Shown here in pieces: positions 5,463 through 32,258 of a DNA stretch of 64,000 nucleotides. The position numbers were made by a program, and so were the translations under genes. How positions within the stretch are numbered: position 1 is the stretch's first letter; the number at the start of each line of letters is the position of its first letter. Origin of the DNA: Escherichia coli (lineage in GTDB: Bacteria; Pseudomonadota; Gammaproteobacteria; Enterobacterales; Enterobacteriaceae); the NCBI RefSeq assembly GCF_030013205.1, contig NZ_CP122648.1; one strand, written 5' to 3'. The notes under the pieces were generated by a model. It was not told where the DNA came from. It ran no database searches and saw only the letters and a program-made list of their open reading frames with translations.

Positions 5463-6356
5463 CTATTTCCAGTTACAAGCAGCTTGAAGTGGTTTTAGCG
5501 CGTTTGACAGGCCGTTTAAATTGAAAGTTGCACTTACAGGGCTCTCATTATAAGGAGTTATTTTTGTATACATTTTGTTTGAGTTGGCTAGTTTTCGGAT
5601 GAAATCAATGTCATTACCTTTATAAAAAACAGCCTTTGTATCTGTAGATACTAGCCAGTTTCGCTCAACTGCTTTCTGTTTATCAAGACGATAAAGCATG
5701 CTGGTTTGTTCAAGGCCTAAATATACATCCCAACTAAGAAATACTTCGGTTTTCTTTTCTCGGCAAGCTATAAACAGAGTGGGAGTAACCGCTTCTCCAA
5801 ATGGAGTTCTGATATAATCATCACTTTCTAACGATAAAATTACATTTTTCGAATCATCAATTGGCGATGTAGTAATGGATGTGTGCCATTTTCCTACATC
5901 TGTGGCTTTCTCTAATTTTGATTCAGCTTGAACAGCTTTATCCTGTGGGAATAGTTTATCGTAGCAGTTTAGTCTGGCTTCTTTATCATTTTCTGCTCGG
6001 CATTTAGATATCTCAGAAAGATTTGGTTGCTGAGCCTCTGTTGTTACTGGCTTTTCCGTTTTAGATTTTGAGTTTACAGATGGAGTAAATGTTGGAGAAA
6101 AAAAACGATCATAACAAGATAAACGTCTGTCATCATCTTTCTCATCAGGGCATTGATCTCTGCTTTCGAATTTTTCAGCAACTTTCGTTCGAGTCGGTTG
6201 TATTGACTTATCGTAACAAGAAAGTCTGTCTTTATTATTTTCTATTGCTCGGCACTGGAGTACTGCATTGAAGTTATTATGTTCAGTTGCTGCGTGAACA
6301 GGCAGTACACTAATTGATATAAATGATGCACCTATAGAAAAAATTATATTTTTCAT
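5463..6356 (-). CDS. Secreted protein with three Cys-containing repeats (RLSCYDK-type) and a C-terminal domain of unknown function
   Basis: 297-aa ORF; N-terminal signal peptide (cleavage near VHA-AT); three ~40-aa repeats each with an R-L-(S/N)-C-Y-D-(K/R) motif; AT-rich, atypical composition; inside the prophage boundaries. Confidence 0.6.
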   Translation of the reverse strand: MKNIIFSIGASFISISVLPVHAATEHNNFNAVLQCRAIENNKDRLSCYDKSIQPTRTKVAEKFESRDQCPDEKDDDRRLSCYDRFFSPTFTPSVNSKSKTEKPVTTEAQQPNLSEISKCRAENDKEARLNCYDKLFPQDKAVQAESKLEKATDVGKWHTSITTSPIDDSKNVILSLESDDYIRTPFGEAVTPTLFIACREKKTEVFLSWDVYLGLEQTSMLYRLDKQKAVERNWLVSTDTKAVFYKGNDIDFIRKLANSNKMYTKITPYNESPVSATFNLNGLSNALKPLQAACNWK

Positions 6357-6360
6357 TTTG

Positions 6361-6702
6361 TTATCCTTTTGGTTTAGTAAGAAATACTAAAATTCCGATA
6401 ATGATATCGCCAATAACCCATAAACTTCCAATGGTAATTAAACCTAAGCCTGTACCAATAACTGCACCGGCTTTTTCGGCATCGGATGTAGCATTATTTA
6501 TTATTTCACTAGTGCCTCCCAGTCCAACTAAAAGCGTATAGATCATAAAAATATTAAATAATATAAATATCCACTTGATGAGCTTTCCAAAAAATGAACG
6601 CTTAAGTTTTTTTATTTGTTTACCGCAAGCAGGGCAATACAATGCTGAATCGCTCACCTCTTTCTGGCATTCAGGACATTTGATTAATGCCATGTAATCC
6701 AC
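6361..6702 (-). CDS. Small membrane protein with N-terminal zinc ribbon (CPEC...CPAC) and two predicted TM helices
   Basis: 113-aa ORF (real start may be the Met at 6690, MALIKCPECQ...); 4-bp gap to the downstream secreted-protein gene suggests an operon. Confidence 0.55.
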   Translation of the reverse strand: MDYMALIKCPECQKEVSDSALYCPACGKQIKKLKRSFFGKLIKWIFILFNIFMIYTLLVGLGGTSEIINNATSDAEKAGAVIGTGLGLITIGSLWVIGDIIIGILVFLTKPKG

Positions 6703-6954: not shown

Positions 6955-7095
6955 TTACTGCTTACACTGTAAGAACGCCGCAAACTCCGCTCCCCAGAAA
7001 CTCATCCGTATTTCGCACAGCGAACCGTGCAACATCCAGATGATGAGGATTACCGTCACGCAGAACGTGATGGCTGTAAGCGATTTTTGCGACAT
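6955..7095 (-). CDS. hok: Hok/Gef-family type I toxin (46 aa)
   Basis: Unlisted short ORF MSQKSLTAITFCVTVILIIWMLHGSLCEIRMSFWGAEFAAFLQCKQ: single TM helix followed by SLCEIR and E-F/V-AAF motifs typical of Hok/Gef; AAGGAG Shine-Dalgarno 9 nt upstream; structured flanks. Confidence 0.65.
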   Translation of the reverse strand: MSQKSLTAITFCVTVILIIWMLHGSLCEIRMSFWGAEFAAFLQCKQ

Positions 7096-8880: not shown

Positions 8881-9990
8881 TCACTCTGTTTCTGCTATCC
8901 ATTCCGGGATTTTTGCCTCAAGCTCAAGCTGTGTGGTAAAGCCGCTGTTATCAATGGTGTGCTCGGCTTTCGCAATAATCCAGTCCTGATTATCAATCTC
9001 GCTTTTAAATCCTGTTACCGTGCCATGCATTTCGGGGTAGAGTTCTGCACGTCCACGCACCAGCGTGATGGAAAACGATGCGGCTCCGCGTTGTAGCTGC
9101 TGCCACTTTGCCGCCGCTGCGCGTCTTGCTGCCTGCTCGTTCTGATAAGTCTTGCGTAACACAAACACATTGCCTTCCGCGCCTTCCATATAATCACCTT
9201 CACGGCTGCTGCTTTTCTCCTTTTTGGGTTTTGGCGGTTTGCGGCGTTTCACGCTGACTTTTTTCTTTTTCCCGTAATTAAGATCAAGCCAGTAAGCGCG
9301 TACCCCCGTATACGCCTCGCGGTCAGCAATGCGGAACTGATGGCGATCGCCGCTGCTGCGTGTGATGGCGAACGATGGCAACGGCTGGCCCTGTGCGTTC
9401 ACGCCACCGCCGGGCATGATGAATAACAGATTACCGCTTTTTACCGTGGTGATTGCGCCCAGCATTTCCGCCATGCGCGTAAGGAAGGACATGTCGCTTT
9501 CTTCAGTCTGGTCGGCGTGGTCGATTTCGATATCCATCAGCATTTCGCTGATTTGCGGTTTCAGGCCGTACCGATGAGCGATGGCGGATACCACACGTTC
9601 AACGGTCACATCATGCCAGGACGCCTCACGTTTAACATTAAATTCATCCCGAAAATCTGCGCTTCTGGCTGAAACAGTCAGCCTGTCCGGCGGTCCTTCG
9701 TGAGCGATTTCATCAATAATGTAAGTGCCTTTTTCTGTCAGCGGTTCCCCTTTCCAGCCAATGAGAACCGTCAGACGCGCGCCCCGTGGCGGTAGCTGCA
9801 ACTGGCCATCGGCATCATCCAGCGTGATGGTGAGCTGGTCCGCCTCAAATCCCCGGTTGTCGGTCAGTGACAGGCTCATCAGGCGTTCTGCCACGCCGGA
9901 CAGCGTTTTACCCTCGGCGAGAATATCAAAATCCGGCATTTTCACGGGGTCTGTGCCCTGACTGAGCAATTGCATGGTGGTGTCGGTCAT
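8881..9990 (-). CDS. P2 gpD-like tail protein (late control gene D family)
   Basis: ORF 8881..10122; likely true start is ATG at 9990, preceded by GGGAGGG (MTDTTMQLLSQGTDPVK...); Lys-rich central stretch and overall gpD-like size. Confidence 0.75.
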   Translation of the reverse strand: MTDTTMQLLSQGTDPVKMPDFDILAEGKTLSGVAERLMSLSLTDNRGFEADQLTITLDDADGQLQLPPRGARLTVLIGWKGEPLTEKGTYIIDEIAHEGPPDRLTVSARSADFRDEFNVKREASWHDVTVERVVSAIAHRYGLKPQISEMLMDIEIDHADQTEESDMSFLTRMAEMLGAITTVKSGNLLFIMPGGGVNAQGQPLPSFAITRSSGDRHQFRIADREAYTGVRAYWLDLNYGKKKKVSVKRRKPPKPKKEKSSSREGDYMEGAEGNVFVLRKTYQNEQAARRAAAAKWQQLQRGAASFSITLVRGRAELYPEMHGTVTGFKSEIDNQDWIIAKAEHTIDNSGFTTQLELEAKIPEWIAETE

Positions 9991-16467: not shown

Positions 16468-17048
16468 CCCTGATTCATCAGCTCTGGCCATACGATATCC
16501 GGAGCTGTACTGGTGTCAATTCTACTCACTAATACTCTGTATTTTCTCCAGGAATCCAGTTGTGAATTTTCCTCGTTTGTTGCTATTTCAAGATTAACTG
16601 CATCCTGCAGAATTGCGATGTTATCTGTTGCTTCCTGGATCAACCTTGCCTTTTTCTCTTCCGCTTCCCGTATCCGAAACAGTTTTTCTGCTTCCTCATC
16701 CTTCACCCAGGATACGCCGTCCCACTTCTGATACTCCCCTGCTGGCGACAACCAGGTGACATTCTCTGGTAGCGGTCCGGGTTCAGAAATAAACAACGCG
16801 TCCCCCGATGCCACGTCATAGACCGTTTTACCACGATGGTCTTCAACAATATTCCACGATTCATTTTCACTGTTAAAAACTGCCACAAAGCCAGCAGGAA
16901 TTTCCGGTGGGGCGATATCTGTAGAATTGGCTGGCAGCCCTGTATGAGGTGGAATATATGCGTCACCTTCACCAATAAACTCATTAGTTCCGGCCAGCAG
17001 GTTATAAATTTTTACAGTACGTGATTGTTCACTCATTCTGAATGCCAT
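16431..17048 (-). CDS. Tail fibre assembly protein (P2 gpG / Tfa family)
   Basis: 205 aa; typical Tfa N-terminal region; start overlaps the stop of the upstream tail-fibre fragment (TAATG). Confidence 0.8.
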
Positions 17049-17395
17049 TATGCAAGCCTCACAATATAATTAAATGCGATGTTTTTAACGGTGTTTTCCG
17101 CGTTACCAGCAGCGTTAACGGTGATGGTGTGTCCATGTGAACCAATCGCAACAGAGTGCGTATGAGCGCCAATAGCTGATTGAGTGTGACGCCATACGCC
17201 CCACGGACCATCAGTGCCATTCCACTTATTGGCGAGTTTACGCATGTATACATTGCCGTCTCTCGTGATAAAACGTTGCGTGCCTGCAAAATTGCCAGCT
17301 GCAAAAACCTCAAGCACACCGACAGCATTATCTTCCGGGAAATTTTTCTCCAGTGTTGCGTTGGTGGATGTTGCTTTAGACCAGATGCCAGTGCA
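17048..17395 (-). pseudogene. Tail fibre gene (H-like), 3' fragment only
   Basis: Open frame from the stop at 17396..17398 to 17048 encodes ...[40 protein letters not shown], a typical tail-fibre C-terminus; no N-terminal part; fused out of frame to the truncated capsid gene. Confidence 0.7.
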
Positions 17396-18033
17396 TCAGC
17401 GTTCGCATACTTACCCGCGTGCGCCACGGTGTTGTCCATGTTACGGGAGGTCAGCGTCACGTCATTCATAACGCGTTCGCTGGCGTCGGTTCTGATGTGC
17501 TCCAGCCACCCCACGTTAACGTCCTGAAGCAACTTGTTGGTGCTGAAGTTGGACTCATCCGCGTGAGACGTGCCGTTGAAACCGATCATGATTCGGTCAA
17601 GCGCCACCTGTCGGGCAATCTGTGCGCTGATGCGGGACTGAAAATCGCTGTGTGCCGACCAGGCATCAAGCTGCGGATACGAAATAAACGTGTCGTAGTT
17701 CACCTGTTCGCACTGGTATTTGCGGTTTTTCAGATCAACCACGTTATTCGGGTTACGGCGTTTTGTTCCGTCATAACTGGTATTCGTGCGCGCAATCGGT
17801 CCTGTGGTATCCAGGAGGATTTTTTCGCCCTTCTGGTCGGTCACGCCGATCACGTTAATTCTTTTTGTAAATTCGGTGCTTTCCTTTGAGGCGTTTTCAA
17901 AACGCTGCTGTACCGAGGGTTCCACGGTAAATCGCGATACCAGTGCGGAAACCGGGATATTGTTAAGCGACGCCTGCTGCGCCATATAGCAACCCAGCTT
18001 GTTGCGGGTAATATCTGACATCACCAGATTCAT
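17381..18033 (-). pseudogene. Major capsid protein gene (P2 gpN-like), truncated after ~217 codons
   Basis: N-terminal 217 aa align with P2 N (FTVEPSV, GEKI, KYxCxQ, IMxGFNG, LQDVxVGWL, RVM); after ADALAS the frame runs into tail-fibre DNA and yields low-complexity sequence. Confidence 0.75.
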
Positions 18034-19047: not shown

Positions 19048-20799
19048 ATGATTCAGGACGCTTTTGTGCGCCAGCGTGCGCGACAACTTTACTGGCAGGG
19101 TTATCCGCCCGCAGAAATATCACGTCTGATGGGAATAAACCCGAACACGATTTATGCGTGGAAAAAACGCGACCAGTGGGATGAAACGCCACCCGTGCAG
19201 CGTGTCACGCAGTCCATCGATGCGCGCCTCATCCAGCTTACTGAAAAACAGAATAAAACAGGCGGTGACTTTAAGGAAATAGACCTGCTGACCCGGCAGC
19301 TTAAAAAACTGCATGATGGCCAGCCGGATGTGACGGCCACAGGAAAGAAAGGCCGGGCGAAAAAACTCAAAAATCATTTCACGCCGGAACAGATTGCCGC
19401 ACTGCGGGAAAAAATCATCAGCAGGCTGGAGTGGCATCAGCGGGGCTGGTTTGACTCCCTGACCCTTTGCAGGGAAGCCGGGATACGTAACAGGATGATC
19501 CTGAAATCCCGACAGATTGGGGCGACCTGGTATTTTGCACAGGAAGCACTGCTGATGGCGCTGCGTGACGATGTGGCGCAACCTTACCAGCGTAACCAGA
19601 TTTTTTTGTCTGCGTCGCGTCGTCAGGCGTTCCAGTTTAAAAGCATTATTCAGAAGGCCGCGGCTGAAGTTGATGTGGAGCTGAAAGGGGGCGATAAAAT
19701 CATCCTCTCCAACGGCGCAGAGCTGCATTTTCTCGGCACTTCTGCTGCGTCGGCACAGTCCTATACGGGCAATTTTTATTTTGATGAATTCTTCTGGGTC
19801 AGTCGCTTTGCTGAACTGCGCAAGGTGGCTGGCGCTATGGCAACCCTCAGCGGACTGCGGCGCACCTACTTCTCCACGCCATCCACCGAAACGCACGAGG
19901 CATACGCCTACTGGAACGGCGACCGCTGGAACGAGAAAAAGGCCACGCATAAACGCCAGCGTTTTTCTGTGGACTGGAAAACGCTGCATAACGGGCTTAT
20001 CTGCCCTGACCGGACGTGGCGGCAAATTGTCACGCTGGAAGATGTGGTTAATCACGGCTGGAAACACACCGATATTGACGAAATCCGTGATGAAAACACC
20101 GAAGACGAGTTCCTCAATCTCTATATGTGTGAGTTTGTTCGCGAAGGGGAATCGGCATTTAACCTGAATATCCTGATTGGCTGCGGTGTTGACGGATACG
20201 ACGACTGGAAAGACTGGAAACCTTTTGCTCCCCGCCCGATGGGGAATCGTCCGGTATGGATTGGGTATGACGCAAACGGCAGCAGTGGCAACGGCGACAG
20301 CGGCGCTGTGTCCGTGGTGGTTCCTCCGGCTGTTCCTGGTGGCCGTTTTCGAACGGTGGAGACGCGACGCGTTCAGGGGCTGGAGTTTGAAGAACAGGCC
20401 AGAGTCATTGAAGAGTTCACGTATCGCTACAACGTGGAACACATCGGCATTGATGTGACGGGCGGGAACGGGGAGGCTGTTTATCAGATAGTGAAACGGT
20501 TTTTCCCTGCTGCTATTCCGTACACCTTCACGCTGTCATCAAAACGGTCGCTGGTACTGAAAATGCTGCAAATAATGCGTGCCGGGCGGTGGGAATACGA
20601 TCGCGCCGAACGCGAGCTGGTCGCGGCCTTTAACGCCGTGCGTAAGGTGAAAACACCGGGCGGCTTTATCACTTACGAAACGGACCGCGCGAGGGGGATC
20701 AGCCACGGCGACCTTGCGTGGGCAACCATGCTTGCTGTCATTAACGAACCGATTGGCGGCGAAGGAGAAAACGAGCGTTTCACGGTTATGGAGTTCTGA
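19048..20799 (+). CDS. Terminase large (ATPase) subunit (P2 gpP-like)
   Basis: 583 aa with N-terminal HTH-like region and nuclease-like C-terminus; size and position as P2 P. Confidence 0.85.
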   Translation: MIQDAFVRQRARQLYWQGYPPAEISRLMGINPNTIYAWKKRDQWDETPPVQRVTQSIDARLIQLTEKQNKTGGDFKEIDLLTRQLKKLHDGQPDVTATGKKGRAKKLKNHFTPEQIAALREKIISRLEWHQRGWFDSLTLCREAGIRNRMILKSRQIGATWYFAQEALLMALRDDVAQPYQRNQIFLSASRRQAFQFKSIIQKAAAEVDVELKGGDKIILSNGAELHFLGTSAASAQSYTGNFYFDEFFWVSRFAELRKVAGAMATLSGLRRTYFSTPSTETHEAYAYWNGDRWNEKKATHKRQRFSVDWKTLHNGLICPDRTWRQIVTLEDVVNHGWKHTDIDEIRDENTEDEFLNLYMCEFVREGESAFNLNILIGCGVDGYDDWKDWKPFAPRPMGNRPVWIGYDANGSSGNGDSGAVSVVVPPAVPGGRFRTVETRRVQGLEFEEQARVIEEFTYRYNVEHIGIDVTGGNGEAVYQIVKRFFPAAIPYTFTLSSKRSLVLKMLQIMRAGRWEYDRAERELVAAFNAVRKVKTPGGFITYETDRARGISHGDLAWATMLAVINEPIGGEGENERFTVMEF

Positions 20800-21845
20800 T
20801 GAGCAGAAAAAATAAAAAAGTGCGCATGAGTTCACGCATTGATCTCGCTGATGCGCTCAGGAAAGAATCATCGCTCAGTGCATTCACATTTGATGGTCCT
20901 TATCGCCTGACCGGGCATGACCTGCTGGACAATATGTACTGTGCTGATAACGGGCGGTGGTATGAAACCCCGGTGGACTGGTACGGTCTGGCAAGAGCAG
21001 CCCGGCAAACGTCCTGGCATCAGTCTGCGCTTTACTTTAAGCGCAATGTATTACTCGGTTGCTACATCCCGCACCCGCTGCTTTCCCGGCAGGATTTCTC
21101 GGCGCTGGCGCTGGACTGGTTTGTGTTCGGTAACGCATTCCTTGAGCTTCGAAGCAATATGCTCGGCGAACCGCTTAAATTACGGCACGCACTGGCGAAA
21201 TACATGCGACGCGGAAGCGATCTTGAATCATGGTGGTATGTGCAGGATGGCAAGGACGCGTTCCAGTTTCGCCCTGGCAAAGTGTGCCACCTGATGAATC
21301 CGGACATTAACCAGGAAATTTACGGCATGCCGGAATATCTTGGCGCATTACTCTCGGCAAGCCTGTCTCATTCGGCGGACATGTTCAGAAAACTGTATTA
21401 CGACAATGGATCCCACGCCGGGTGCATTATCTACATCGGTGCAGCGCAGGTAAACCGCGAAAGCATGGACTCCCTGAAAGAAACGCTACAGGGTGCGCGT
21501 GGTGGTGGTGCGTTTAAAAACGTGCTCATTCATGCGCCCAACGGGGGCAAAGAGGGGGTGCAAATTTTGCCGTTCCAGCAGATCACCGCAAAGGATGAGT
21601 TCATGAATGTTAAGGCGGCATCCCGTGATGATGTGCTGGCTGCGCACCGCGTTCCGCCGCAACTGATGGGGGCGATGCCGGGTGAAAAAAGTGCGTTTGG
21701 TGATGTGGAGAAGGCCGCGCGGGTTTACGCAATTAACGAGCTGATGCCCGTCATGGAGGCCATGAAGCACATCAATGACTGGCTTGGCGAAGAGGTGATC
21801 CGCTTTAACCCTTACGCACTGTTAGACACCCAGCCCACATCCTGA
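20799..21845 (+). CDS. Portal protein (P2 gpQ-like)
   Basis: 348 aa immediately after the terminase gene (ATGA overlap); P2 portal is ~344 aa. Confidence 0.8.
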   Translation: MSRKNKKVRMSSRIDLADALRKESSLSAFTFDGPYRLTGHDLLDNMYCADNGRWYETPVDWYGLARAARQTSWHQSALYFKRNVLLGCYIPHPLLSRQDFSALALDWFVFGNAFLELRSNMLGEPLKLRHALAKYMRRGSDLESWWYVQDGKDAFQFRPGKVCHLMNPDINQEIYGMPEYLGALLSASLSHSADMFRKLYYDNGSHAGCIIYIGAAQVNRESMDSLKETLQGARGGGAFKNVLIHAPNGGKEGVQILPFQQITAKDEFMNVKAASRDDVLAAHRVPPQLMGAMPGEKSAFGDVEKAARVYAINELMPVMEAMKHINDWLGEEVIRFNPYALLDTQPTS

Positions 21846-22332: not shown

Positions 22333-22602
22333 TCAATTGTTGCTGTGTATTAATCGCCAACCACGAACATATGCTTCATAGGCATCTCTGTGCCTTACAG
22401 TTCCAGCCTGGCTAAACGGAATGTTAGCTAAAACTAAATCATTCTGAGCCATAGCGCGTCCTTCAAGCGCATCTTTTATGCCTAGCTCAAAAGCACAGGC
22501 AGCGCATTTGTGCCGACCTTCTTGTCCTTGATATTCAGGGAGAGACAGAAATGTTGGATTATAACGATGAGGGTTCTTGCAAATACCTGTTTTAGCCCGC
22601 AC
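22333..22602 (-). CDS. Hypothetical small protein, Cys/His-containing
   Basis: 89-aa ORF between the cos region and parR; no clear family assignment from sequence. Confidence 0.4.
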   Translation of the reverse strand: MRAKTGICKNPHRYNPTFLSLPEYQGQEGRHKCAACAFELGIKDALEGRAMAQNDLVLANIPFSQAGTVRHRDAYEAYVRGWRLIHSNN

Positions 22603-22966: not shown

Positions 22967-23278
22967 TTACTCAGGAAATAACGCCCGGATATTCCCAGCC
23001 ATCTGGCTGGTTATCTTAGCCACTGGTGCAGACTGTGCTTCAAACTTTTTTGAGCTGATTTGTGTCACAGGTAACATCTCATCATCAGCCCATGCGGCCA
23101 GTCGGTAAGCCTCTGCCGGATTCGTCTTCAGAAGTGCCAGCCCGGCCAGAAAAGCCACGCGTTGGCCGCTTTTGCGGGCTTCTGGTGTAAGGCTGTCCAG
23201 CCAGGCGCATGCTTCTCCTTCGTTCTTGACGGCAGCTGGCTTCAGATAGAAACTTATCCGTCTGGTTGGTGTTGTCAT
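22967..23278 (-). CDS. parR: ParR-like centromere-binding adaptor
   Basis: 103 aa from the ATG at 23278, preceded by AGGAG 7 nt upstream and only 4 nt after the parM stop; resembles R1 ParR (RRISFYLKP...LDSLTPEARKSGQRVAFLAGLALL). The longer annotated ORF 22967..23413 overlaps parM and is rejected. Confidence 0.7.
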   Translation of the reverse strand: MTTPTRRISFYLKPAAVKNEGEACAWLDSLTPEARKSGQRVAFLAGLALLKTNPAEAYRLAAWADDEMLPVTQISSKKFEAQSAPVAKITSQMAGNIRALFPE

Positions 23279-23282
23279 TGGT

Positions 23283-24242
23283 TTACTCCTTGTCCATTGC
23301 GTACAGCCCATTAACCAGAGCAAACTGTGGCACCCCGTCCGCGATGAAAGTCGCATTAACTCCGCAGGCTTCGCGGATAGCGGGTGCCACAATCTCCGCC
23401 CCGCCACCGACAACCATCACCCGCCCGTAACCCGAAAAACCCGCCAGCGCGCGGATCACGCGTTGTTTCAGTGTTTCTTCCTTTTCACGAATAACCGCCA
23501 TCAGGCTGGCGTAATGCGCGTCATTGTGGATGTGCTGGCGCAGCCAGGCTTCATCATGGCGATGTTCGATAATGGTATTGGCGATGTGGTGACTGGTACG
23601 CATACCGTTAGTGGCCATCACCGACAGTACGGCATCGGCCATCAGGGAAACGCCTACGTGTGGATCGCAAAACACCTGGCTGATACCTGCCAGTTGTCCC
23701 TGAACCTTTGCCACATCCAGCGTGGTTCCGCCTAAATCCACAATCAGCAGGGATTCAAACGGACTCATGTCAGCCAGTGCTTTAAAGCCAGCCGGAATGG
23801 ATTCAGGCATAACCCGTACGTTACGGATAGTGAATGCTTCGCCGTTCTGGTACTCCACCGGGCGCATGACGTTCGCTTTTTTGCGGTTGATGTTGGCCAT
23901 GTCCGGCTGTGCGTTTGTGTCGAAATATTCGCTCAGTGGCAGGGTGACAACCACATCCACTTCCTGTGGTGTGATGCCTGATTTGACCAGCGCGTGATGA
24001 ATGGCAATGACATTCACATCGCTGTACTGGTATTGCGTGTCGGTCGTCTGGACAAAGCGATCGCTGACCGGATCAAAACCATAGCGCACGCCATCAAGCA
24101 TGTAGTTCGCGGGCTGCGTGCCACCGAACGGCGCAGACCATTCCGACTTGAAGCTGTTCGGGCTGATGGCGTTGCGGCGTTCGCCGTTCTCAGTCCATGC
24201 CAGCTTGATGTTGGTGGAGCCGTCATCGATACAAATTTTCAT
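23283..24242 (-). CDS. parM: ParM/StbA-family actin-like segregation ATPase
   Basis: 319 aa MKICIDDGSTNIKLAW...SPNSF...VMPESIPAG...LIVDLGGTTLD...VMVVGGGAE; close to plasmid R1 ParM along the whole length. Confidence 0.85.
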   Translation of the reverse strand: MKICIDDGSTNIKLAWTENGERRNAISPNSFKSEWSAPFGGTQPANYMLDGVRYGFDPVSDRFVQTTDTQYQYSDVNVIAIHHALVKSGITPQEVDVVVTLPLSEYFDTNAQPDMANINRKKANVMRPVEYQNGEAFTIRNVRVMPESIPAGFKALADMSPFESLLIVDLGGTTLDVAKVQGQLAGISQVFCDPHVGVSLMADAVLSVMATNGMRTSHHIANTIIEHRHDEAWLRQHIHNDAHYASLMAVIREKEETLKQRVIRALAGFSGYGRVMVVGGGAEIVAPAIREACGVNATFIADGVPQFALVNGLYAMDKE

Positions 24243-24274
24243 GTCGCTTTTCCTTATGTTGATTAATTAATCGC

Positions 24275-24382
24275 TTACGGGATTCTGAAATCCCGTTTTT
24301 GCCTGTTTTATGCGCGCTTCATATATCGCGGCGCGTTTTTTGCTCATTTACGGGATTTGTGAATCCCGTTTCTGTCTGTTTT
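24275..24382. promoter_or_regulatory. parC-like centromere/operator: two 35-bp direct repeats, each holding a 20-bp palindrome, flanking a putative promoter
   Basis: Repeat A 24275..24309 (ACGGGATTCTGAAATCCCGT) and repeat B 24348..24382 (ACGGGATTTGTGAATCCCGT), 73 bp apart, directly upstream of parM; repeat B overlaps the last codons of the A-like ORF. Confidence 0.6.
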
Positions 24383-27141
24383 TTGTTTCCACTGGTCAGG
24401 CCTCCCCGCAGCAGGTCTGCTTTGCGGCGGGCGCGTTCAGTGGTTTCACTGATTCTCTGTGCGTGCTCTGCGTCGCGGATGGCGCGCAGCATGTCAGAAA
24501 GCACGGTAACGGGTGTTTTCATGGTGTTCTGGTCCTGCTGAAGTGTGGATGCCAGGCGTGCGGCGGCTTCGGGGTCTGATGCCCCCAGCTGTTCCAGATA
24601 GCTGGCGACCGGGTTATGGCGGATCTCCGTGCTGCTTACGCCGTGGTTACGGCTCAGGCGCTGCCAGAGCTGCGTGATCCGGCTGTCCGGTCGGGTATCC
24701 GGTTTGCGTACAATTTCAAATCCCTGCGGTGCAATGATGCTGCCGTCGACGTACAGACTGCCGCCCCGTAACAGGTGCTGCATCTGCTGTTCACCGATAT
24801 GCAGGCCGAGAGATTCAGCAGACTCCCGCCATTCTTTAGCGAGTAACTCGTGGTTATCAGGCAAAGGCCGTGGCTGTTTGCGGCTCTGTGTCCAGTTCTG
24901 CATTTCATCACTGCTGTTTTTTGCCTGTTTGTCACGCAGCGAACGCATCAGCGCCCGGCGTTCGTGCCGTTTCAGTGAGCGCATCCATTCATTCACGTCA
25001 ACGCCGTCAGGAAGCTGCGGCCACGGTGCTGGCCGTTCTTCCGGCTGTTCTGTCCCGTTGTTGTCCGTTTCCTGTACACGGGGACAGTTATTGCCACGAG
25101 TCCAAGGGGCGGCAGGGCCGCCCTGAAGGTCAAAACCATTTTCGCGGGCGCTGTCTTCCGCTTCCGGTTTACGTCTTACCAGCTTCCAGTTATCCGGATG
25201 TGTGCACACACGGGAAGACTCCCCGATGAGCGGTGACCAGATCCCGTAAATCTGTACGCTCTGTTCGCCGTAATCGTTCAGCTCATCTGCGAGGTCGTAG
25301 GCGGTGCGAATCAGGTAGTCTTTGCGTGGAACAAGTACGCCGCCCTGTTTTTCAATGTAGGAGGCAAAACACCCGGCATCAGCGGCAGCGAGCACTGCAT
25401 CCATTGCGTCATCCTTCAGTCGTTGCGGGCCTTCCGGGTTGCGTGCCATCTGGCTGGCAAGGCGGCGCAGTTCACGCCACACCTGACGGGAGGGGATGCC
25501 AAAGAACTGGAACTGGCGGACCCGGTGAAGGCGCGCCCAGCCGATGGCGCGCTCCACGCTCTCGGCCATTGATTTTCCGGTTTCGTGGTCAACGCGTGGC
25601 TTGCCCGTTTTCGGGTCGATACCATCCACGGCGCGGCTGTCCAGGTTCTTTCCGATGTAGGTGGCGATGTAGCTGGTTGGCGTGCCTTTTGAGCCGTCGA
25701 CGTACTCCGCCTTAAAACGCGGAGTTATGTCATCGCCCAGCTCGTGGCGGTCTTCCTGAATGGCAATATCGCAGACGTGGGACACGATGGTTTCAATCTC
25801 GTCCGGATGTGCAAAGACCATCATATGCCAGTGCACAGTGCCGTCATGGTGAGGCTCCACCGTGCGGATGCCATACCAGCGAAGACCGTCGCGGTTCAGT
25901 TTTTTGCGGACCGCCGCAAAAAACGTGTTAACCAGGTAATCGCTGGAGTCGCGCATGGTGGCCCCGTTCCATTTGGGATTCGGATGACCGTTCTCTGTTG
26001 TGGCGTGGTATTTTGACGGGCAGGTGACAGTCAGAAACACCGCTCTGTCGCCACGGGCTTCGGCCAGAAGTTCCAGTCCCTTCATGGTGGCCATCATTTC
26101 TGCCTTACGGTGAACCGGGTTACTTACTCCCGCGTAATACACCGTCTCGAGATCAATCGTGAACCCGTCTTCATTTTCCAGCATGAAACTTTTCAGGAAA
26201 TCGCGTGTTTTCTCGCGCTGTGCGCGAAACTCGCTTAACGCGTCCTGGCTCAGATAGGGTGATGTTTTTCTGGAAACCAGACAGGCGGCGCGGAGTTGTT
26301 CTTCTCTCCACTCGCAACGTAACAGCCACAGTTTGCGTTTCCACCATTCCGCACAGGTCAGGCGAAGGATTGCGCCCGGCAGCAGCTCCGTGTCCGGTTC
26401 GTTCCTCCGGTCTTTGTCTGTTGTCAGTGCGTCATAATGTGGAGGCATGGCGTGCAGGTGTAACGCCATGCGGGCCAGCATCTGATACGCCTTCAGCGTT
26501 ACATCCATGGTCAGTTCGCCATCAGTAGCGCCAAAGCCATCGCAGAGTTTTTCGAAGGTGCTGCTGAACATCGCCGCCGTCATGGTGGCCAGCGTCTGTA
26601 TCTGGTGTTTGTTGAGCTGCGGCAGGTAAAGCAAATCGTCCAGGCGTTCGCGTCCGGCAAGGGAGCGATAACCCGGTGTCAGCCAGCGGTGATCGGTGCG
26701 GTCCAGACGTTCGAATATTTTGCGCAGGGTTCCGCGCGCGTAGCGTTCCGCCTGCCAGCTCTTTTTGCCTTTCTGACGATCGGCTTCCTGCTTCTTGCGC
26801 AGGAAGGAGAGGTGGCGAATAAGCGGATCGCGCAGATAGGACGGCAGCAGGCGCAGCGAGGCCATGGCTTCATCCACCGCGCCGCGTGCCTGTTTTCTGG
26901 CGTCTCCTGCCAGTGTGATGGTTTTGTCCTGTTTTTCCTGTGCGTCCAGGCTTTTATTAATCAGGTTGCCCAGCGGCGTGGCGGAGAACGCCGCATCAGC
27001 CATTTCCTGGCGGCGCTCGTTCTCTACCCGGTAGGCATCCAGCCAGGAGGAAAGCGCGGATTCAGGAGCGGAGATCCCCGTTCCTTCACGCCCCACTGCG
27101 TGGCGCGGTTGTTGCCAGTCCCTGATGTACTCTGCCGTCAT
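24319..27141 (-). CDS. Replication initiation endonuclease (P2 gpA-like, rolling-circle)
   Basis: 940-aa ORF containing SKYH and VEPHHDGTVHWHMMVF, matching the P2 A signature (VEPHHDGTPHWHMMLF) and the catalytic Tyr region; longer than P2 A (761 aa), so start and C-terminal extent are uncertain. Confidence 0.85.
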   Translation of the reverse strand: MTAEYIRDWQQPRHAVGREGTGISAPESALSSWLDAYRVENERRQEMADAAFSATPLGNLINKSLDAQEKQDKTITLAGDARKQARGAVDEAMASLRLLPSYLRDPLIRHLSFLRKKQEADRQKGKKSWQAERYARGTLRKIFERLDRTDHRWLTPGYRSLAGRERLDDLLYLPQLNKHQIQTLATMTAAMFSSTFEKLCDGFGATDGELTMDVTLKAYQMLARMALHLHAMPPHYDALTTDKDRRNEPDTELLPGAILRLTCAEWWKRKLWLLRCEWREEQLRAACLVSRKTSPYLSQDALSEFRAQREKTRDFLKSFMLENEDGFTIDLETVYYAGVSNPVHRKAEMMATMKGLELLAEARGDRAVFLTVTCPSKYHATTENGHPNPKWNGATMRDSSDYLVNTFFAAVRKKLNRDGLRWYGIRTVEPHHDGTVHWHMMVFAHPDEIETIVSHVCDIAIQEDRHELGDDITPRFKAEYVDGSKGTPTSYIATYIGKNLDSRAVDGIDPKTGKPRVDHETGKSMAESVERAIGWARLHRVRQFQFFGIPSRQVWRELRRLASQMARNPEGPQRLKDDAMDAVLAAADAGCFASYIEKQGGVLVPRKDYLIRTAYDLADELNDYGEQSVQIYGIWSPLIGESSRVCTHPDNWKLVRRKPEAEDSARENGFDLQGGPAAPWTRGNNCPRVQETDNNGTEQPEERPAPWPQLPDGVDVNEWMRSLKRHERRALMRSLRDKQAKNSSDEMQNWTQSRKQPRPLPDNHELLAKEWRESAESLGLHIGEQQMQHLLRGGSLYVDGSIIAPQGFEIVRKPDTRPDSRITQLWQRLSRNHGVSSTEIRHNPVASYLEQLGASDPEAAARLASTLQQDQNTMKTPVTVLSDMLRAIRDAEHAQRISETTERARRKADLLRGGLTSGNKKQTETGFTNPVNEQKTRRDI

Positions 27142-31253: not shown

Positions 31254-32258
31254 ATGTCGATTAAGAAGCTCGAAGATGGTCGTTATTTGCTGGACATCAG
31301 GCCGAACGGACGCAAGGGAAAGCGCGTGCGTAAGGTATTTGACAAAAAATCGGTAGCGGTGGCCACTGAACGCTACATCATGGCGAACGCTGAAAAGCGG
31401 GAATATATACAGGGCTACCGTGATCGTCGAACGCTAAATGATTTGCTTGAGTTGTGGTGGATGTATCACGGCCAGCACAGGCGTAAGGCGGAAGAAGACC
31501 GAAAACAACTGCGCAACATAATCAATGAGCTTGGCGCTGATATGCAGGCTGTGGATCTTGATAAGCTGAAAATTATCGCGTGGCGTTCTCAAAAGATAGC
31601 TGATGGATTGAAACCGTCATCTGCTAACAGGTACATGAATCGGTTATCCGGAATGTTTACCGTGCTGAAAAAAATAGGTCTTTGGGATGCAGAACATCCA
31701 GTAAGGGGAATTTCTATTCTTTATGTATCTCCACGAGAAATGGCGTTCCTGTCACAGAAGGAAGTGGCGCTATTGCTCGATACACTGGAGGGCGACTACT
31801 GGCGTGTTGCGCTTTTGTGTTTAAGCACAGGGGCGCGCTGGAGTGAAGCTTGTAAGCTTCGTGGTGAACAGATAGTTCATAACCGTGTAACGTTTCTTGA
31901 AACCAAAAATGGCCGGAAGAGAACAGTGCCAATTTCGCAGGCAGTTTGTGAGGCGATCAAAACCAGAGAAACAGGCGGCTTGTTTGAGGTGAAGTACCGG
32001 GAATTCTGCCTGGCGCTGAAAAGAGTTAAGCCCGATTTACCAAAAGGCCAGGCTGCACATGTGCTGCGGCATACGTTCGCCAGCCATTTTGTGATGAACG
32101 GAGGAAACATTATTGCGCTTCAGAAGATTCTTGGTCACGCAACCATTCAGCAAACAATGGCATATGCGCATTTTGCACCGGATTACCTGCAGGATGCGGT
32201 GGCCCTTAATCCGCTGAAAGGTGGCGTAAGTGTCCACGCAGTGTCCACGGGGGATTAA
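31254..32258 (+). CDS. int: Tyrosine integrase (P2 Int-like)
   Basis: MSIKKLEDGRYLLDIRPNGRKGKRVRKVFDKKSVAVA... is close to the P2 Int N-terminus; C-terminal region has HxxR and a catalytic Tyr context; adjacent to attR. Confidence 0.9.
   Translation: MSIKKLEDGRYLLDIRPNGRKGKRVRKVFDKKSVAVATERYIMANAEKREYIQGYRDRRTLNDLLELWWMYHGQHRRKAEEDRKQLRNIINELGADMQAVDLDKLKIIAWRSQKIADGLKPSSANRYMNRLSGMFTVLKKIGLWDAEHPVRGISILYVSPREMAFLSQKEVALLLDTLEGDYWRVALLCLSTGARWSEACKLRGEQIVHNRVTFLETKNGRKRTVPISQAVCEAIKTRETGGLFEVKYREFCLALKRVKPDLPKGQAAHVLRHTFASHFVMNGGNIIALQKILGHATIQQTMAYAHFAPDYLQDAVALNPLKGGVSVHAVSTGD

Follow-up and report, generated by a model that had tools for sequence, protein, structure and literature searches.

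Why would a bacteriophage that integrates into the chromosome of its host carry a partition system of the kind known from plasmids? The question is raised by a 64,000-nucleotide stretch of Escherichia coli DNA (contig NZ_CP122648.1; the whole stretch is referred to here as the window), which is 100% identical to E. coli K_EC180 (NZ_CP062203.1). Within it, a prophage of the P2 family lies between flk and pdxB (5464-32257, RefSeq annotation) and holds a parC-parM-parR cassette beside its replication gene, gpA. An earlier reading made from the DNA letters, hereafter the original prediction, described this cassette as an R1-type plasmid partition module that is out of place in such a phage. That the cassette is a working ParMRC homolog is near certain; its biological role we infer.

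The cassette pairs a full-length ParM with a short ParR

The cassette and the two phage genes that flank it are laid out as follows.

24319-27141, minus strand: gpA, replication endonuclease, 940 aa, P88-type allele (Pfam Phage_GPA, 3.8e-129)
24348-24385, minus strand: distal parC repeat, palindrome at 24350-24369, inside the gpA 3' end
24275-24312, minus strand: proximal parC repeat, palindrome at 24277-24296, overlapping a weak promoter candidate
23283-24242, minus strand: parM, 319 aa, actin-fold segregation ATPase
22967-23278, minus strand: parR, 103 aa, ribbon-helix-helix (RHH) centromere-binding adaptor
20799-21845: portal gene, on the far side of parR from gpA

Along the minus strand, gpA is followed by a 76-bp gap, parM, a 4-nt gap and parR, so that gpA and the portal gene flank the cassette just as had been predicted for its position between the replication gene and the cos/portal end. 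The ribosome-binding site of parR, AAGGAG, sits in the final codons of parM, which fits the proposed translational coupling of parM and parR. No minus-strand terminator was found between gpA and parM. With its ParM ATPase motifs, RHH-type ParR and repeated upstream sites, the cassette reads as a complete R1-type (type II) module.

The predicted ParM matches the Pfam families StbA_N (2.5e-82) and ParM C-terminal domain (2e-68) as well as the PHROGs family phrog_691, 'partition protein' (1.8e-90). Against the PDB it aligns with the R1 ParM structure 1MWK over residues 2-316 (E 9e-93), and it shares 47% identity with R100 ParM across 318 aa, which bears out the near full-length similarity to R1 ParM that had been claimed for it. 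Alignment with R100 ParM shows that the nucleotide-binding motifs DDGSTNIK, DLGGTT(LD) and GGGAE are retained, covering the phosphate-1, phosphate-2 and adenosine elements. The match to the Pfam family ALP_N is weak (2.7e-05). An NCBIfam scan of the cassette gave sub-threshold matches only; for the equivalog NF010498 (plasmid segregation protein ParM, PRK13917), the window ParM scored 19.2 bits against a curated cut-off of 417. That model describes a different ParM subfamily, and the Pfam-level membership of the window ParM is unaffected.

ParR matches PF10784 (Plasmid_stab_B) in Pfam (1.3e-23) and phrog_2515 in PHROGs (2.3e-59), and R100 ParR aligns with it over the first 56 residues only, at 34% identity. 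Because a sequence search of the PDB with ParR returned no match even at E ≤ 10, structure prediction and Foldseek were used instead. The AlphaFold (AF2) model, with a mean pLDDT of 74.6, has an extended N terminus, helices at residues 18-29, 32-52 and 54-61, a disordered stretch at 62-85 and a C-terminal helix at 86-100 (pLDDT ≈80). Its sole meaningful Foldseek match is ParR of plasmid pB171 (2JD3; probability 1.00, TM 0.53-0.60 over 66 columns), a structural likeness that comes with 23% sequence identity and a Foldseek E-value of 0.047. A tblastn search of plasmids with ParR (E ≤ 1e-3) found no plasmid ParR; it hit seven records, and in these only P88-like phage DNA.

Alignment through intermediate homologs resolves ParR into a conserved N-terminal RHH domain, a hypervariable linker and a C-terminal tip, x-x-N-[AI]-x-x-L-F-P, that is paired with the extreme C terminus of R100 ParR, KKNAMKLIN, and in which the Asn (N96) is invariant. 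The C-terminal helix of the window ParR, which ends in NIRALFPE, is thus conserved behind a variable, disordered linker, and a middle segment of ≈26 residues found in plasmid ParRs is absent from the phage ParRs. This C-terminal region is the ParM-binding peptide used in PDB 4A62, and the tip of the window ParR is its putative counterpart. We also considered whether NIRALFPE corresponds to the internal R100 motif NILRSLFPKE, in which case the ParM-binding tail would be missing; this was rejected, as the alignment with intermediate homologs pairs NIRALFPE with the true C-terminal tip. Overall, hidden Markov model searches and structure prediction place the two proteins in the ParM and ParR families, in agreement with the adaptor of 103 aa originally proposed; a lack of significant similarity to these families had been named as the result that would speak against the module.

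A putative centromere of two palindromic sites

Upstream of parM lie two direct repeats of 38 nt each, 82% identical and 73 bp apart from start to start, and each holds a perfect ACGGGATT-N4-AATCCCGT palindrome (8-4-8). The pair of repeats with 20-bp palindromes had been foreseen, at a repeat length of 35 bp that our measurement extends to 38. With three or fewer mismatches allowed, the palindrome pattern occurs three times in the 64 kb, compared with 0.25 expected. The distal repeat falls within the last ≈20 codons of gpA. A promoter-like, AT-rich core had been placed between the repeats; the 35-nt spacer is instead ≈51% G+C and includes the gpA stop codon, and no sigma-70 match of at least 9/12 was found in the parC region. 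The best promoter candidate there, TTCAGA-16-ATTAAT, scores 8/12, with its -35 element TTCAGA in the loop of the proximal palindrome.

All 13 of the E. coli-type copies compared have a GGG-N10-CCC core some 125 nt ahead of the parM ATG (about -125). The strict form at about -52 is present in 10 of them, and the other three have one-mismatch variants. The same layout, with exactly two GGG-N10-CCC sites at about -125 and -52 and 72-73 bp apart, is shared by four lineages.

E. coli-type copies: ParM at least 95% identical to one another
Hafnia relative (L012): ParM close to the window ParM
Plesiomonas P2-like phage (L016): 62% ParM identity
Second Hafnia phage (L017): 62% ParM identity

Across these four, ParM identity spans ≈60-95%, and in the two distant lineages the flanking DNA cannot be aligned. 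GGG-N10-CCC has a background frequency of 0.14 sites per kb and is absent from R100. The conservation of two sites across lineages is the strongest evidence that the putative parC sites matter, and a two-site centromere that recurs in diverged P2-family cassettes, unlike the iterons of R1, is a detail added here. It also departs from the R1-type module of the original prediction, since R100 has A/C-rich iterons where the window has two palindromes.

A fifth lineage (L018, 3887-4038; L020, 3369-3412 and upstream) has inverted arms, GGGAACG...CGTTCCC, 59-60 bp apart, in place of two palindromes. It has two genes between gpA and parM, so that a different centromere layout occurs within the same ParR clade.

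The palindromes were also examined as possible terminators. They resemble a terminator on the plus strand only, which is the strand opposite to parM and has no gene of its own within 1.3 kb of them, and we rejected this reading. Because the sequence of the palindromes is conserved, and not mere pairing, predicted protein-binding sites are preferred.

The cassette belongs to the P88-like phage backbone

From parC through parR, the window cassette is 95-99% identical in DNA to 14 phage records, all of them P88-like (Xuanwuvirus, Peduoviridae), in which the genes are annotated 'plasmid segregation protein ParM' and 'partition protein'. Escherichia phage P88 (gp17/gp18) and the Xuanwuvirus phages 520873, P88_4B11, phiSM (Citrobacter rodentium), 569R5 and Chuche carry the same element in the same gpA-parM-parR order, and the Xuanwuvirus ParMs are 98-100% identical to the window protein; the window copy differs from them in its parR 3'-half allele, its downstream cargo and the defective state of its prophage. 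In a collection of 50,697 phage records, ParM homologs occur only in these 14 and in phage-plasmid D6. The StbA of D6 (P1-like, 91 kb) is 48% identical to the window ParM over 99% of its length; unlike the window element, which integrates and belongs to the P2 family, D6 is a true plasmid prophage from a different family of phages.

Within the same collection the cassette is found in all 14 Xuanwuvirus records and in none of the other P2-family records. A gpA at least 80% identical to that of the window is found in exactly these 14, and the other 368 P2-family gpA matches stay below 60%; among the matches listed, the next best reach 41-43% identity and cover residues 9-796 only. Since parMR and the long gpA occur in the same 14 records, the cassette is linked to a lineage-specific long gpA. 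In the P88-like copies compared, it is always the interval from parR to the portal gene that varies in gene content. We therefore read gpA-parM-parR as a constant block of the P88-like backbone that lies beside the cargo hotspot and is not cargo of it. The cassette is thus part of the phage genome, as originally held, and not a separate adjacent insertion. The companion suggestion that it is cargo at the tin/old position does not fit, with gpA-parM-parR fixed to the P88-type gpA and the variable genes confined to the interval between parR and the portal gene.

The P88-type gpA has a C-terminal extension of ≈144 residues (≈797-940; window 24319-24750) with no Pfam domain. No listed gpA alignment to other P2-family phages covers it, it is always accompanied by parMR, and the distal parC site falls in its final codons.

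The cassette is already known from its RefSeq and PHROGs annotation and from Rousset et al. 2022, who surveyed the gpA-gpQ locus, noted a partition cassette and put forward the same plasmid-maintenance hypothesis. As a finding it is ordinary, a standard feature of P88-like phages. The additions made here are modest: the conserved two-site centromere, the linkage to a gpA allele, the mosaic parR and the defective state of the window copy.

Distribution and selection

The cassette is found in 1303 of 5426 complete E. coli genomes, about a quarter, at 1449 places, of which 1447 are chromosomal and two are on plasmids; some genomes hold two or three. Carriage by all 14 Xuanwuvirus records and by so many genomes runs counter to the view that type II systems are foreign to integrating P2-like phages. 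The K_EC180 chromosome itself has three places that match the cassette, and thus up to three P88-like elements with parMRC.

True plasmid parM genes reach at most ≈67% DNA identity to the window parM. An exhaustive HMMER search of 1.84 billion representative proteins returned only 22 relatives of ParR, and every relative that was traced lies between the gpA and portal genes of a P2-like phage. ParRs of the window type thus seem to form a clade restricted to P2-like phages, and a recent plasmid capture is not supported; a captured plasmid module had been one of the options in the original prediction.

Across eight copies, parM shows 10-24 synonymous and 0-9 non-synonymous differences per pair (dN/dS 0-0.12), and in the N-terminal domain of parR, dN is far below dS. 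By these measures, both genes are judged to be under strong purifying selection. Open reading frames (ORFs) are intact in all 13 E. coli-type copies, degraded prophages included, with 319 codons in parM and 103 or 104 in parR.

The parR gene is a mosaic. Its N-terminal domain and last 8 codons are conserved, and the linker and 3' half (22967-23100) fall into at least three allele groups with dS of 0.6-0.9 (L001, L006); the parM beside it is ≈98-99% identical in DNA. The window carries the 520873-type allele, to which the P88-type allele has 86% DNA identity and the 569R5-type ≈72% over the first 197 nt. This pattern suggests that the cargo hotspot recombines at a junction within parR.

State of the window prophage and neighboring genes

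Several genes elsewhere in the window prophage are damaged; the Hok/Gef-family gene listed with them lies outside the cassette, at the opposite end of the prophage.

31254-32257: integrase gene, frameshifted
17048-18033: major capsid gene, truncated and abutting tail-fibre fragments, with the intervening head-to-tail-fibre genes missing
8881-9681: gpD-like gene, truncated
6955-7095, minus strand: Hok/Gef-family toxin gene (RefSeq annotation of the identical chromosome)

The window prophage survives as a defective remnant, yet with gpA, parM and parR intact. The hok-like toxin gene named in the original prediction is indeed present. It adjoins ogr at the left end of the prophage, and between hok and flk (5464-6694) are genes for a 'TagO' type VI secretion system-associated protein and a zinc-ribbon protein, which may be att-proximal cargo.

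The only hotspot cargo in the window copy is an 89-aa ORF (22333-22602, minus strand) with Cys-rich motifs that belongs to phrog_3941 (unknown function). It has a promoter-like site at 22838-22811 and a terminator at 22325-22305, is unannotated in the RefSeq record of the window strain and has no Pfam or PADLOC match. A PADLOC scan of ParM, ParR and this ORF gave no match and thus no support for reading the cassette as a defense system.

In the copy of O157:H7 strain 2159 (L022, 2445-4055), parR is followed, ≈80 bp past its stop codon, by an IS1203, and the portal and terminase genes have been lost; gpA, parM and parR are uninterrupted, and the proximal parC site has a one-base variant.

Two further copies are of phage length. 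One is a complete P88-like genome recorded as a 34,461-bp circular 'plasmid', pZ1323PEC0009-2, from E. coli Z1323PEC0009 (L003; NZ_CP148288.1, 1-34461), which encodes the same Hok/Gef protein as the window, WP_000078920.1. The other is a parMR-bearing Plesiomonas P2-like phage on a 32,167-bp contig that ends 141 nt past the integrase gene (L021; WEKF01000002.1). Both may be episomal or induced forms. A 26.8-kb Shigella boydii 'plasmid' was rejected as evidence for an episome: it is a linear, unplaced contig with IS1 copies.

Relation to characterized segregation systems

The window cassette resembles the ParMRC (parA/stb) systems of R1 and R100 in its full-length ParM, the RHH N terminus and C-terminal tip of its ParR, and the order cis-site-parM-parR. 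It differs in its centromere, which consists of two 16-20-bp palindromes 73 bp apart in place of ten A/C-rich (11-bp) iterons flanking a strong promoter, in a ParR that lacks the middle segment, and in its carrier, an integrating phage and not a low-copy plasmid. The window copy is chromosomal and so falls outside the low-copy-plasmid carriage of type II systems.

Among integrating elements, one known counterpart is srpMRC of the SXT/R391 integrative and conjugative elements (ICEs), a conserved type II partition locus whose expression is confined to activation of the element and which was shown to stabilize both that element and a test plasmid (Carraro et al. 2015, PMC4489591). SXT/R391 elements integrate into the chromosome, replicate in excised form through a rolling-circle initiator and carry a toxin-antitoxin stabilizer (PMC4489591). 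Both systems thus combine a type II locus with an integrating rolling-circle element and a companion toxin function. The carrier of srpMRC is an ICE and not a phage, however, and its proteins are remote relatives of R1 ParMR; the stabilizing function demonstrated for srpMRC is only presumed for the window cassette.

A second counterpart is AlpAC/alpS of the Corynebacterium glutamicum prophage CGP3, which is induced early and which the phage needs in order to replicate efficiently (Donovan et al. 2015, PMC4446434). There, too, an integrated prophage encodes an actin-like filament former (AlpC), and its co-transcribed adaptor (AlpA) binds upstream of the operon. AlpAC differs from the window cassette in actin-like family, gene order and host phylum, and its role is in phage replication, not inheritance.

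What the cassette may do

We tentatively favor, at a probability of roughly 45%, the reading that the cassette provides ParMRC segregation for phage circles outside the chromosome during activity of the early operon, so that fewer unintegrated or excised copies are lost. The two GGG-N10-CCC palindromes ahead of parM, which at 73 bp are seven helical turns apart, would be occupied by ParR dimers; the proximal site overlaps the weak promoter, and ParR may therefore also repress its own operon. The C-terminal helix of ParR would capture the ends of ATP-ParM filaments, whose growth would push sister DNA circles apart. As parM starts 76 bp past the gpA stop without a terminator, parMR is probably expressed with the early replication operon and made mainly after infection or after derepression and excision. 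The module would then act on phage circles replicated by the rolling-circle mode, and, by analogy with srpMRC of SXT/R391, would limit the loss of such copies at cell division, with help from the hok toxin of the phage. The cassette would not be a device for a permanent plasmid lifestyle. In the window itself, where the prophage is defective, the intact cassette is left without a mobile substrate.

In favor of this proposal stand the identity of the two proteins, the two-site layout shared by four lineages, the purifying selection, the strict linkage to the P88-type gpA, the weak promoter and missing terminator ahead of parM, the srpMRC precedent, the hok gene of the same phage and the overwhelmingly chromosomal location. 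Several points weigh against it. Two sites are far fewer than the ten iterons of R1, and an R1-like ParR-DNA scaffold may not form on them. Partition is useless to a cell committed to lysis, so that any benefit requires a dividing carrier or pre-integration state, which is hypothetical for P88-like phages. Retention in long-dead prophages, such as the O157:H7 remnant, could point to a role at the level of the host. We found no functional study of the P88-like parMR cassette in the searchable literature; the P88 paper does not mention partition, and supplements from ciprofloxacin omics studies of enterohemorrhagic E. coli have no ParM entry.

The main rival, which we consider doubtful but better placed than the others, is a lytic role like that of AlpAC, in which ParM filaments, acting through ParR and parC, would position or spread replicating circles for efficient replication and packaging, and not secure their inheritance when the cell divides. 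P2-type phages package from monomeric circles. The position of the cassette directly after gpA without a terminator, and its strict link to one gpA allele with a lineage-specific C-terminal extension, are in keeping with such a role, as are the early induction of AlpC and AlpA in CGP3 and their requirement for efficient phage replication. However, the other 368 P2-family phage records represent phages that replicate without any ParM, and the window proteins are close to the ParM and ParR of plasmid segregation and not to AlpC, as the weak ALP_N match reflects.

The favored segregation of transient circles stops short of plasmid life, which can be proposed in two forms. In the first, which we regard as unlikely, P88-like phages would be facultative phage-plasmids: after infection or excision, gpA would replicate a circle that a minimal two-site ParMRC actively partitions and hok polices, giving a heritable carrier state alongside integration. 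The ParMRC would then be a subtype of its own, specific to phages and marked by a short ParR and a centromere of two palindromes. In the second, shared by the original prediction and Rousset et al., the element would be a stable or facultative plasmid-prophage able to survive over many generations as a low-copy episome, with ParMRC to partition it and hok to police it; this we think quite unlikely. Hok and ParMR together are classic plasmid-maintenance functions, and the circular 34,461-bp record and the Plesiomonas contig of phage length are what an episome might leave in the databases. Against this, a circular contig is equally explained as an induced replicative form, and for the integrase type of the circular record, 310 chromosomal occurrences stand against none on a plasmid. 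Among the 72,556 plasmids of PLSDB, a single circular, phage-sized P88-like copy was found. All but two of the 1449 places in E. coli are chromosomal, whereas a phage-plasmid is an autonomous replicon in its lysogens; integrase and cox genes are kept in all copies, and replication relies on the rolling-circle gpA of a repressible early operon, with no plasmid-type replicon seen.

Very unlikely, in our view, is a function in conflict or at the level of the host that is exerted from the integrated state, whereby ParR, with or without ParM, would act on incoming related phages or plasmids with the same sites (through incompatibility or repression) or confer some other benefit. The survival of intact parM and parR in defective remnants such as those of the window and O157:H7, where IS1203 abuts parR, would suit this idea, although it may simply reflect recent decay of the surrounding prophage. 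The cassette also adjoins a defense hotspot, has a candidate ParR-controlled promoter and is present in two or three copies in some genomes. Yet it has no PADLOC match and is fixed to one gpA lineage in place of being swapped like hotspot cargo, and the DNA-reading N terminus of ParR and its sites are the same across alleles, with no sign of diversified specificity.

Barely credible is a non-functional relic of old plasmid-phage recombination that is passively carried: no function has been demonstrated, the centromere is minimal and most P2-family phages do without the cassette, but the selection analysis contradicts this reading by showing strong constraint (parM dN/dS 0-0.12, with ATPase motifs intact and ORFs intact in 13 of 13 copies), and the cis-sites are conserved across lineages at 60% ParM identity.

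About a quarter of E. coli genomes, then, carry a plasmid-segregation machine under purifying selection on an integrating phage, and the searched literature holds no test of why. The conserved two-site centromere offers a concrete and easily mutated target. If the cassette does stabilize transient phage circles, the blurred boundary between plasmids and integrating elements known from the SXT/R391 ICEs would extend to a major prophage family, and this would help to explain the spread and persistence of P88-like prophages.

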